DNA of 64,000 bases from Pirellulales bacterium. GTDB taxonomy: Bacteria > Planctomycetota > Planctomycetia > Pirellulales > JAEUIK01. Position 1 is the first letter of the stretch. Each line of letters opens with the position of its first letter. A program made the position numbers and the translations under genes. A model generated the notes under the pieces. The model was not told the DNA's origin and made no database searches. It was given only the letters and a program-made list of their open reading frames with translations. The stretch spans positions 2,513 through 66,512 of the forward strand of contig JAIESQ010000030.1 in the NCBI GenBank assembly GCA_019745975.1. Reading direction: 5' to 3'. Of the stretch, positions 9,895 through 12,402 are shown in pieces.

Positions 9895-10977
9895 ATGCCA
9901 CGCCGCGAGCTGCCGTTCGGCGAGACCGTGATCGGCGTCGAGTTGCCCGAGCGCACGCAGTTCGTGCAGCCGGGCGCCGGCGGTGGCCGGCTCCCTCCAG
10001 CGGCCAACGAGGCGCAAGCCGTGCGCGATGCGCTCGCCGCGCCCTTGGCCAGCGACCCAATCTCGGCGCGCGTTAAGCCCGGCGCGAAGGTGCTGATCGC
10101 CTTCGACGACCCCACGGTCCCGTCGTATGGGCCGATCCGCCGGCTGGCAATTGAAGCCGTGCTCGACGAACTCTCGCGCGCCGGAGTCGATGAACAAAAC
10201 GTGTCGCTCGTGTGCGCCAACGCGCTGCATCGCAAGTGGACCAACCAAGAACTCTCGACCGGCTTGGGCGACGACCTGATCAAGCGCTTCGGCCAGCGCC
10301 TGGCGTGCCACGACGCCGAGGACGCGGACAACCTCGTGCATCTCGGCGTCACCCCCGAAGGCTACGACGTCGAGGTTCACAAGCTGGTCGTCGATTGCGA
10401 TCTCGTCGTCTACGTGAACGCCGGCTACTACCTGGGCTTTGGCGGCGGCTGGAAATCGGTTTGCGTCGGCCTTTCGACCTGGAGGAGCATTCGCTGGACG
10501 CATACGCCCGACGGCATGTCGATGTCGTTGCACAAGAACCGCATGCACGCGGTCTTCGACAAGATGGGCGCGTTTCTTGAGCAGCAGCTCGGATCGAAGG
10601 TCTTCAAGATCGAGTCGGTCCTGGCCAACCCGTTTCAAATCTCGCGGGTGTTTGCCGGCGGGGTCGACGCCACCCGCCAGGCGGCCATCGATCTGCTGGC
10701 GACTGTGAACGTGCCGCGCCGCAGCGGGGGCGAGCCGGCCGACGTGGTGATCTACGGCGTGCCGAACTGGAGCCCCTACGCGACCTTCGCCACGATGAAC
10801 CCCATCCTGACCTTGATCTCCTCGGGCCTGGGGTACTTGGGGGGACATATCGAAGCACGCGGCAAGCAAGGCTGCTCGGTCATTCTGGCCACGCCGGCCC
10901 GCGATGAGTGGGACCTGACCCACCATCCAGCGTATCGCGAAGTCTGGGACAACGTGCTCACCGATACGCTCGATCCG
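9895..10977 (+). pseudogene. Lactate racemase (LarA/DUF2088)-domain gene, 5' exon only, interrupted by a group II intron
   Basis: RBS GAGGAG; IAFDDPTVP, VCANALHRK and GGGWKS motifs; protein-like sequence stops at ...TDTLDP exactly where the intron GTGCG begins. Confidence 0.75.
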
Positions 10978-11659
10978 GTGCGCCAGGCAAAGCCTGGTTG
11001 TTCTTGTCAGTTGAAAGGTACTGATCATGGCACTTGCTCGTTCACCATGAAGTCGAGCGGCGTGCGGCAGGGCGACCGGCCGTGCGAAGCCCGCCAGCGA
11101 CGACGATGTCAGCCGTAATGCGCAAGCGTGAACCCGATTCGGCCTCGTTACAAGCGTGAGAGTGGCCAGCCGCCCGGATTCGGTGAAGCCTGACGCCGAC
11201 CGCCAAGCAACGAGCACGCGCAGCGGTCGGGCTCTCCGGGGTGATAGGGGACAGCGGGCATCGACAGAACAACCAGGAACCTGGGAGACCTGCGACGGCA
11301 GCCCGCGACGCTCCGTCGCGCGCAACCGGCGGCGGGAAAGCATAACCGCCCTCGGGCCGGCGCAGGAGTCGGAGGGGTTCGTAGTAGCGACGAAGCCGGG
11401 CAACGCCGGCCGAGCGAAGGAACCCTGCCGGAGAGTCGTGGCAGTCAACGAAGGACGTGCCGCTTGGGTCTTGCACCCGACTACGGAATTCAACGCGTCC
11501 TTTCGCGACCGCCACTGGTTGTTGGTCCAAGCGGATGCGGTCAACATTCGTGCATGTCCAGCAATGAGTGTCTTCGGGAAAGCCGGATGCGGTAGCTCCG
11601 CACGTCCGGTTTGAGGAGGGGAGAGGCGGCAGCAACGTGCTGCCCCTCTCCTACTCGAC
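10978..11659 (+). mobile_element. Group II intron (IIB-type EBS1/EBS2 layout) without an intron-encoded RT ORF
   Basis: 5' GTGCG; GGAACCTGGGAGACC at end of domain I; domain III-like GAGTCGGAGGGGTTCGTAGTAGCGACGAAGCCGGGCAACGCCGGCCGAGCGAAGG; domain V AGCCGGATGCGGTAGCTCCGCACGTCCGGTTTGAGGAGGGG; domain VI ending CTACTCGAC; no YADD-type ORF. Confidence 0.92.
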
Positions 11660-11694
11660 TGGTTAGTTCTTCTCGATCCGAGAAGTGCCAATGA

Positions 11695-11721
11695 CCACGG
11701 ATGGCACGAATGACACGGATG
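11695..11721. repeat. Short CACGGATG-type tandem repeat element
   Basis: CCACGGATG-GCACGAATG-ACACGGATG, three imperfect 9-nt units just downstream of the intron. Confidence 0.45.
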
Positions 11722-11829
11722 AATTCGGAAACGGAAAGAGTCGCGGGTTGCGGACCGAGGTGGCCAATCGCGATACAATGGGAGCGGGCTCAACGTGATC
11801 CGGTAGGGGAGCTGCCAACACGCAAAGCC

Positions 11830-12402
11830 ATGAGCTCGCTGCCCGAAAAGCTCGAAACGCCCGGCGCTGTGGCGGGGCAAAGCCGCCCGCTGCAATTCAG
11901 TCTGCGCACGCTGCTGGTGGTGATCTCGCTGGCGAGTGCCTTGTTCGCAGTGCTAAGCGTGGTACCGCCCGTGTGGTCATTCATGGCGCTGTGGGTCGCC
12001 CTGCTGGTGATCGCTCACGTCGCCGCGAATGCCTGGGGAAAGCGAACATTTGAGCCGGGCGCGGTTCGGCCGGACGACTCGCTTCCGCGCCACGCACCAC
12101 CGCGTCACGCAACATGGCCGACGCATCCGGCATCTTTGGCGGCAACCTCGGAAGGGAGTCGCCTGCGCCGCCACGCCACGCTCGAACGCTCGCGCTACGT
12201 GGCGACTTTTGTCACGGCAGGAATCGGCGGGCTGATCGGCTGCGTCGTGTTGGCGCTGATCCATCTGCATCAGGCGAGCTTCGCGGCGTGTGCCGTGTGG
12301 ACGGGGGCCTCGGCCGTGATCAGTGGCATCGCCGGGTTTGTCGGCAGCGGCTTCTGGCAGGTCGTCAGGCGCTCGACCGACGAGCTAGCACCGTTGCCGT
12401 AG
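11830..12402 (+). CDS. Hypothetical membrane protein (planctomycete 'FSLRTLL' type)
   Basis: LQFSLRTLLVVISL motif and four hydrophobic segments; ATG at 11830 preferred over 11701. Confidence 0.6.
   Translation: MSSLPEKLETPGAVAGQSRPLQFSLRTLLVVISLASALFAVLSVVPPVWSFMALWVALLVIAHVAANAWGKRTFEPGAVRPDDSLPRHAPPRHATWPTHPASLAATSEGSRLRRHATLERSRYVATFVTAGIGGLIGCVVLALIHLHQASFAACAVWTGASAVISGIAGFVGSGFWQVVRRSTDELAPLP

Follow-up and report, generated by a model that had tools for sequence, protein, structure and literature searches.

A 64,000-nt stretch of contig JAIESQ010000030.1 from a Pirellulales bacterium (the window; contig C186 of genome G000, all coordinates being window positions) carries the first 361 codons of a LarA-like gene, directly followed by a group II intron of 682 nt at 10978-11659 on the forward strand (Table 1). 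The intron begins with GUGCG and ends with CUCGAC (final letters CCTACTCGAC). In a gathering-threshold Rfam scan of the whole window, the sole match was RF00029 (group II domains V and VI) at 11578-11659, which covered the full-length model (1-77) with 40.8 bits against a gathering score of 40. With permissive filters, the region 10800-11900 also matched RF02005 (group-II-D1D4-6) at 11015-11251 (51 bits, gathering 49, E 3e-13). The ..GAC at 11659 satisfies the group II AY rule, and sister copies begin with GUGCG or GUGUG (GUGYG). Neither of the two long open reading frames (ORFs) inside the intron (152 aa on the plus strand and 197 aa on the minus strand) had a Pfam match. Given the two Rfam matches and these unmatched ORFs, the element at 10978-11659 is a genuine group II ribozyme that lacks an intron-encoded protein (IEP).

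An original prediction, made from the letters alone, had described this element as an intron lacking a reverse transcriptase (RT), with exon-binding sites (EBS) that match intron-binding sites (IBS) in its host gene. Its coordinates for the intron, IBS1, IBS2, EBS1, EBS2 and exon 1 all agree with the sequence. The RT-less character holds as well, since domain IV is reduced to about 140 nt and the internal ORFs are unmatched, and the domain V/VI covariance model that it singled out as a check exceeds its gathering score. To examine the fold, an RNAalifold consensus was computed for intron positions 1-453 of 13 family members from different metagenome-assembled genomes (MAGs), which are 71-95% identical. 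It contains 129 pairs, 58 of them with compensatory two-sided changes.

Table 1. Features at the intron locus (window positions; IBS positions in brackets are relative to the 5′ splice site)
Feature	Position	Strand	Basis
Exon 1 of the LarA-like (Lar_N/DUF2088) gene, codons 1-361 of an expected 457	9895..10977	+	Pfam PF09861; homologues; tblastn of P0002
IBS2 candidate, UACGCU (-13..-8)	10965..10970	+	6/6 pairs with 11153-11158 (5 Watson-Crick and 1 G-U)
IBS1, GAUCCG (-6..-1)	10972..10977	+	6/6 pairs with EBS1; consensus of 22 flanks nAUCCG; covaries across lineages
Group II intron, ORF-less, 682 nt	10978..11659	+	Rfam matches; empty site in L028; full-length sisters with the same ends
Domain I core (RF02005)	11015..11251	+	51 bits; helices backed by compensatory changes
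EBS2 loop, asymmetric internal loop UUACAAGCGU	11148..11157	+	Unpaired in RF02005 alignment and RNAalifold; flanked by invariant or covarying helices
EBS1, CGGAUU, terminal hairpin loop	11175..11180	+	RF02005 and RNAalifold placement; lineage-specific EBS1 fits its own 5′ flank
Domain IV remnant, ~140 nt	11431..11570	+	BLAST breaks at intron positions 453/594; alignments; divergence of a Logan contig at 11430
Domain V, AGC triad 11581-11583	11580..11612	+	RF00029 alignment
Domain VI, bulged branch-point A 11653, 7 nt from the 3′ splice site	11615..11657	+	RF00029 alignment; UA bulge in CCUACUCGAC
Non-cognate 3′ flank of canonical repeat type (TGGTTAG...)	11660..11740	+	17-codon read-through; exon 2 on C124; target motif counts; C157 neighbours

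The intron lies in sense orientation at a codon boundary of the host gene. The exon 1 product carries a Lar_N domain (PF09861, E 1.4e-38), and homologues of the host protein are 455-457 aa long. The closest of these, P0002 (94% identical, 457 aa), is encoded uninterrupted on an ENA contig, L028, where the empty site reads CTCGATCCG/TATGTCATC (slashes mark the insertion point; longer, CTCGATCCG/TATGTCATCAGC). This is the end of exon 1 in the window joined to the start of exon 2 on another contig of the genome, C124. The empty site therefore fixes both splice sites to the base, reveals no target duplication and places the insertion exactly at the codon boundary after 361 codons, as had been proposed. 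In this genome, tblastn with P0002 found residues 1-361 in the window and residues 362-457 at C124:77-364 (94.8% identical, starting YVISDRYLDDYAK...). C124 opens with the 3′-terminal 76 nt of an intron copy, and these 96 codons come straight after them. The 17-codon read-through past 11660 was considered as the true C-terminus and rejected, since every homologue continues for another 96 residues, which C124 encodes. The downstream flank in L028 matches dispersed repeats only, not C124.

Exon-binding sites

EBS1 forms five or six of six pairs with the adjoining 5′ flank at 19 of the 22 sites where this flank could be recovered, and all six at the LarA site. Across about nine lineages EBS1 and the flank covary at the same alignment columns: EBS1 is CGGAUU and the IBS1 flank AAUCCG in this genome, CAGAUU and AAUCUG in the same-genus genome G002, CAGAUA and AUCUG in the long-read MAG CAVVXK01, CAUGAG and CUCAUG in a Pirellulaceae member (L092), CGAAUC and GAUUCG in a locus labelled Dehalococcoidia (L081), CGAAGG and CCUUCG in an Isosphaeraceae member (L090), CUGAGU and ACUCGG in CAVXCB (L040), and CUAGUG and CACUGG in CAWFAF (L086). 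That each lineage's EBS1 fits its own flank is the decisive evidence for the EBS1 assignment. The EBS1-IBS1 pairing of the original prediction, read from this site, thus gains both a terminal-loop position and covariation.

EBS2 was proposed as AGCGTG at 11153-11158. Five of its six bases lie in the 3′ half of a 10-nt internal loop, and the last, G11158, opens the next helix in the RNAalifold consensus. The loop sits just 5′ of the EBS1 hairpin, a layout that is the same in the RF02005 alignment, and its assignment as the EBS2 loop is established. The register within it is more variable. Among the 22 sites, pairing of EBS2 with IBS2 is complete (6/6, with a 1-nt spacer) at the LarA site only; in the same register, canonical sites pair at four of six positions (-13, -11, -10 and -9) but not at -12 or -8. 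All 22 sites have T at -13, and 19 of them have G at -10. In CAVVXK01 the best EBS2 pairing, GCGUA/UACGC, uses another register in the 5′ half of the loop. Since full pairing is unique to the LarA site and CAVVXK01 uses a different register, the exact register is only probable. This alternative, with EBS2 at UUAC/UACNN of the same loop, suits CAVVXK01 but was not preferred for the present genome because it gives no pairs at the LarA site and two to four at canonical sites. The IIB layout suggested earlier thus stands as to loop position and as to the pairing and spacer seen here, but its perfect EBS2-IBS2 match does not extend to the canonical sites. At +1, the 3′ exon begins with T or C in 27/27 3′ flanks. 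Overall, a IIB-type exon-binding geometry is probable. With a covariance-model match to the intron, EBS1 in a loop and EBS2 in a loop for all but one base, neither observation that the original prediction had named as refuting it was made.

Copy number, target sites and ORF-bearing sisters

A BLAST search of the 682 nt against the intron's own genome (204 contigs, 6.98 Mb), a check for sister copies that the original prediction had proposed, returned three full-length copies with ends in common (the window on C186, C151 and C85; 98.7-100% identity) and five partial copies running off contig ends. A further ~42 contig ends carry intron fragments of 63-76 nt, about 19 of them 5′-terminal and 23 3′-terminal. 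The genome therefore holds at least 25 intron copies, 97-100% identical, at different sites and with exact common ends, and intron ends make up the majority of the assembly's contig breaks (~40 places). Depth was examined in k=31 Logan contigs of three drinking-water metagenomes containing the locus, where k-mer depth is 4.8-7.9 for the flanks and 100-180 for the intron. These values suggest roughly 20-35 intron copies per genome equivalent. Recent transposition of the ORF-less form is borne out by the near-identity of the copies together with these depth ratios. The picture of a lone copy that homed to this gene has to be given up: the window copy is one of many, and their usual target is a dispersed repeat.

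The 5′ flanks recovered for 22 sites have nATCCG at -6 to -1 in common, usually after ATCCGTGnn, and 3′ flanks often start with TGGT or TGnnATCCGTGGT. Similarity among the 5′ flanks reaches further upstream (...AACGAnnTCTCATCCGTGnAATCnGTGAnATCCG/), from which it follows that the copies normally target a dispersed, 9-nt-periodic element. Most copies occupy the repeat ATCCGTGnnATCCG/TGGT, a canonical target also written ATCCGTGCAATCCG/TGGTT, and only eight unoccupied GYGnnATCCGTGGT sites are left in the genome. The LarA site, UACGCU-c-GAUCCG/UAUG, departs from this target outside IBS1. Because of this departure, and because the accessory host gene is absent from both same-genus genomes, we read the LarA copy as a probable ectopic retrotransposition into a look-alike site.

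A source of RT was sought next to these copies and across the contig sets. The 204-contig assembly gave no match to RVT_1 (PF00078) or GIIM (PF08388) and no tblastn match to a relative's IEP, but as it holds no contigs below 2.8 kb this is no evidence of absence. Likewise, an exact-pattern scan of the genome and metagenome contig sets for the ORF-bearing branch GTGTTTCCAACAGACGTAAGGAGG gave no match, and no IEP was found beside the fragmentary intron copies of the same-family genomes G002 and G006 (L033, L034). In metagenomes X1 and X3, a 1430-nt contig (depth 16.5 and 14.9, respectively) contains window 11401-11430, is identical to the intron up to intron position 453 and then diverges into AGAACGTGTTTCCAACAGACGTAAGGAGGT... 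This branch is homologous to the same place in ORF-bearing relatives (e.g. AAAGTGTGTTTCCACAAGACGAGGAGG in L081), in which the region encodes the N-terminus (MFPQEEGERRLDE...) of a 475-aa protein. The relatives' IEP has RVT_1 (E 8e-39) and GIIM (E 2e-12) domains and no endonuclease domain; its nearest solved structure is the GsI-IIC RT (E 1e-60), with T.el4h (E 6e-42) and LtrA further away.

Depth ratios suggest about three ORF-bearing and about 30 ORF-less copies per genome equivalent. Judging from its identity up to position 453 and its depth, the 1430-nt contig probably belongs to this genome. The base of domain IV survives in the short form, including a hairpin plus ACUACGGAA in common with the start of the ORF region of the ORF-bearing form, and GUGCAUG is likewise kept before domain V; the remnant may thus preserve a protein-binding site. 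The idea that the intron would need an IEP in trans is supported by these ORF-bearing sisters in the source metagenomes (~3 versus ~30), although none is present in the assembly.

Other repeats were seen in the same data. At its start, C170 (1-152; L026) carries the 3′-terminal part of another group II intron, comprising the tail of an IEP ORF (..ANRWVPAPKILHPHPNDRFYAKHPK, then a stop codon) followed by domains V and VI (RF00029, 42.2 bits), the body of which is absent from the assembly. Metagenome X1 contains a 1927-nt contig at depth 147 whose domain V differs by three mismatches from window 11577-11618 and whose domain VI is different (CGGGGACGGGAGACGG...). A second intron family at high copy in the sample is indicated by this contig, which was not found in the assembly. 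A repeat end, TCTACTGTCCCAAGTTATCGTCGTTGCTTA, occurs at five contig ends (C69, C92, C144, C145 and C174) and, in metagenome X3, is joined to an intron copy after window 11385; it looks like an insertion sequence-like element inserted in an intron copy. Several dispersed repeat families of 50-220 nt, with hundreds of BLAST matches at 70-90% identity, populate intergenic regions genome-wide (e.g. C157:1-750) and the region downstream of the L028 gene, and also break contigs.

Readings of the element and of its 3′ junction

We consider this element, with a probability of roughly 0.85, to be an intact, recently mobile, non-autonomous ORF-less group II intron of IIB type that derives from a ~2-kb parent and was spread by an IEP in trans. 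The parent would have lost the RT/maturase ORF of domain IV while keeping the ribozyme and the base of domain IV, a probable protein-binding site. Intron RNA would recognise DNA or RNA targets mainly through pairing of EBS1 (CGGAUU) with nAUCCG, assisted by the EBS2 loop. An RT/maturase with RT and X domains and no endonuclease domain, supplied by the few full-length sisters, would bind the ORF-less RNA in trans, assist its splicing and copy the reverse-spliced RNA into DNA. The short form could thereby have reached its ~30 copies, mostly in the dispersed repeat, and splicing of the LarA copy would restore the 457-aa reading frame.

Several observations weigh against this account. In RNA-type runs, the sequences recovered were limited to fragments of the intron or its junctions, from related copies in canonical flanks, with no ligated exons or lariat joints. 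Complete EBS2-IBS2 pairing is confined to a single site. In the assembly the window intron is separated from its cognate exon 2, and the gene that hosts this copy may therefore be broken. The 1430-nt contig is metagenome-derived, its assignment to this genome being uncertain. A decaying, immobile fossil that neither splices nor moves would be in keeping with the RNA-type runs, with the lack of an IEP of its own and with a review's statement that IEP-less introns have generally lost retromobility (PMC4424553). Such a fossil is very improbable, however, in view of at least 25 copies of 97-100% identity with exact common ends, catalytic elements that are all intact, a structure kept through compensatory change and an EBS1 that has been retargeted along with the flanks between genomes. 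Hardly more credible is an autonomous ribozyme that self-splices without a maturase, as C.te.I1 of Clostridium tetani does: although no RT was found in the assembly, ORF-bearing variants identical up to position 453 are present in the source samples, and proliferation to ~30 copies requires a reverse transcriptase. Mobilisation in trans of an intact ORF-less intron thus remains the reading that we favour.

A separate matter is how the LarA copy came by its 3′ flank. Close orthologues of the host gene are missing from the two same-genus genomes G001 and G002 (best E ~1e-13 to 1e-16), and other genera have orthologues of 53-57%. The gene to its left is located elsewhere in all four relatives examined, synteny breaking right after a 614-aa gene; the LarA-like gene is accessory and sits at a break in synteny. 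The orthologous region of the 3′ flank adjoins homologues of C157 in two same-genus genomes, but C157 ends in other repeats, which limits synteny as a test of chimera or rearrangement. Since exon 2 is on C124 and the 3′ flank is of repeat type, the 5′ flank seen in the window belongs to one intron copy and the 3′ flank to another. Whether this is an assembly artefact or a real inversion stands at near-even odds. An assembly chimera through the 682-nt repeat, with exon 1, intron and exon 2 truly contiguous and the gene expressed after splicing, has an even chance of being correct. On C124, exon 2 does come right after a 76-nt intron end with which the contig starts, ~42 contig ends break within the intron, the internal variant alleles of the window copy recur in other copies and so make paths ambiguous, and the genes to the left and right of the intron are never neighbours in four relatives; against this, the assembler carried three copies through, each with its own combination of alleles, which suggests read-pair support. 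If the join is an artefact, the gene is simply interrupted, and splicing would restore ...TLDP/YVIS... in frame. The same evidence can be explained, at a little below even odds, by a real junction, in which homologous recombination between the LarA copy and a canonical-site copy in opposite orientation flipped a stretch of the chromosome and left the gene a split pseudogene. Both expected inversion products are present (the junction in the window, and on C124 a foreign flank, intron and exon 2), recombination would find good substrates in ~30 near-identical 682-bp repeats, and the gene is an accessory one that neither same-genus genome carries. A low-depth metagenome assembly (~5-8x in the runs found) nevertheless favours an artefact, and the same data fit a chimera.

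Two further features were noted in the 3′ flank. An unoccupied canonical target, ATCCGTGTCATTCGTGCCATCCG/TGGT, lies inverted (minus strand) at 11694-11722, 35 nt downstream of the intron. In addition, the last 9 nt of exon 1 (CTCGATCCG, 10969-10977) recur 12 nt past the intron within a perfect hairpin, CTTCTCG-ATC-CGAGAAG (11669-11685), which may be chance given the ATCCG-rich repeat.

Family members in Planctomycetota and known systems

A search of GTDB representative genomes with a 23-nt domain I pattern found 63 family loci, mostly in Planctomycetaceae, Isosphaeraceae and Pirellulales MAGs. Among the loci fetched from the long-read MAG CAVVXK01, about 20 have the ORF-less layout of ~685 nt and six an ORF-bearing layout of ~1.99 kb, and the target is an analogous 9-nt-periodic repeat, ATCGGCGnnATCTG/. 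The ORF-bearing relatives carry an RT/maturase ORF of ~1.4 kb in domain IV, and BLAST alignments with them break at the same intron positions, 453 and 594. CAVVXK01 also contains tandem ORF-less pairs (L089:2304-3669 and L093:4537-5902) in which the second copy starts 9 nt after the 3′ end of the first, with the flank ...CTACTCGACCGAAATCTG/. One ORF-less relative (L067:3781-3962) has an extra insert of ~140 nt in domain II that is GC-rich and hairpin-like. Family members were also seen in MAGs labelled proteobacterium, Alphaproteobacteria and Dehalococcoidia (L060, L069, L099 and L081), which could reflect horizontal transfer or binning contamination.

We tentatively propose, at somewhat less than even odds, that the short form did not arise by separate recent deletions but is an old ORF-less lineage, resembling miniature inverted-repeat transposable elements, that coevolves with minority RT-encoding partners across Planctomycetota. 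It would be specialised for the 9-nt-periodic repeat as a safe haven, its EBS1 being retargeted as the repeat drifts. The shared break points at 453 and 594 fit this proposal, as does a domain IV remnant of ~140 nt that is partly alignable where the ribozymes are only 71-76% identical. Also in keeping are the several-fold excess of ORF-less over ORF-bearing copies and a repeat target that differs by genome (ATCCG here, ATCTG in others).

The closest analogue appears to be the family of Thermosynechococcus elongatus (vestitus) BP-1, in which Mohr, Ghanem and Lambowitz reportedly described TeI3/TeI4 introns and ORF-less derivatives in 2010. Both families, the present one probably also of IIB type, have dozens of copies in one genome, most of them ORF-less and served in trans, here probably so, by a few that encode an RT/maturase without an endonuclease domain. 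Here, in contrast, the host belongs to Planctomycetota, the IEP is only distantly related to T.el4h (E 6e-42, weaker than to IIC RTs), most copies lie in one dispersed 9-nt-periodic repeat and the system is known from sequence alone. Delta-ORF introns with the IEP supplied in trans have been engineered as Ll.LtrB targetrons. A further delta-ORF intron with its IEP in trans is EcKTE56.groEL (PMC12584367). In the engineered forms, as in the present intron, the ORF is removed from domain IV and the ribozyme kept, and the engineered form is mobile with RT in trans; tandem insertions occur both in delta-ORF experiments and in CAVVXK01. Unlike these laboratory constructs, the present intron is a natural and widespread deletion form.

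Bacterial ORF-less introns are nearly always found in genomes with related IEP-encoding introns, and action in trans on splicing has been demonstrated in a cyanobacterium (PMC4424553; PMC12584367). In Trichodesmium erythraeum, four ORF-less introns in the single essential gene dnaN are served by the maturase of an RIR intron (PMC12584367). As here, the introns lie in a protein-coding gene; they need the RT of a full-length relative elsewhere in the genome in order to splice, as the present intron probably does. The dnaN gene, however, combines four introns of low copy number in one essential gene, whereas the present family combines a single insertion in an accessory gene with a large intergenic population. 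C.te.I1 of C. tetani is likewise a bacterial ORF-less group II intron within a protein-coding gene, but it is a single-copy intron with alternative splicing in a genome without an IEP (PMC4424553, PMC3919590), unlike the present multicopy intron with its IEP-bearing sisters.

The phenomenon is thus known in bacteria but rare; new here are the phylum, a dispersed repeat as the main target and the very high ratio of ORF-less to ORF-bearing copies. In this genome the short form is the dominant mobile repeat, found within a protein-coding gene too, and it recurs across the phylum, which makes it a natural system for the trans-mobilisation and persistence of ribozyme-only elements. For the annotation and MAG assembly of Planctomycetota it is a warning that contig ends, chimeras and seemingly truncated genes can be intron-caused. 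Finally, the many natural pairs of EBS1 and target could inform retargeting rules for an endonuclease-less IIB-type intron.

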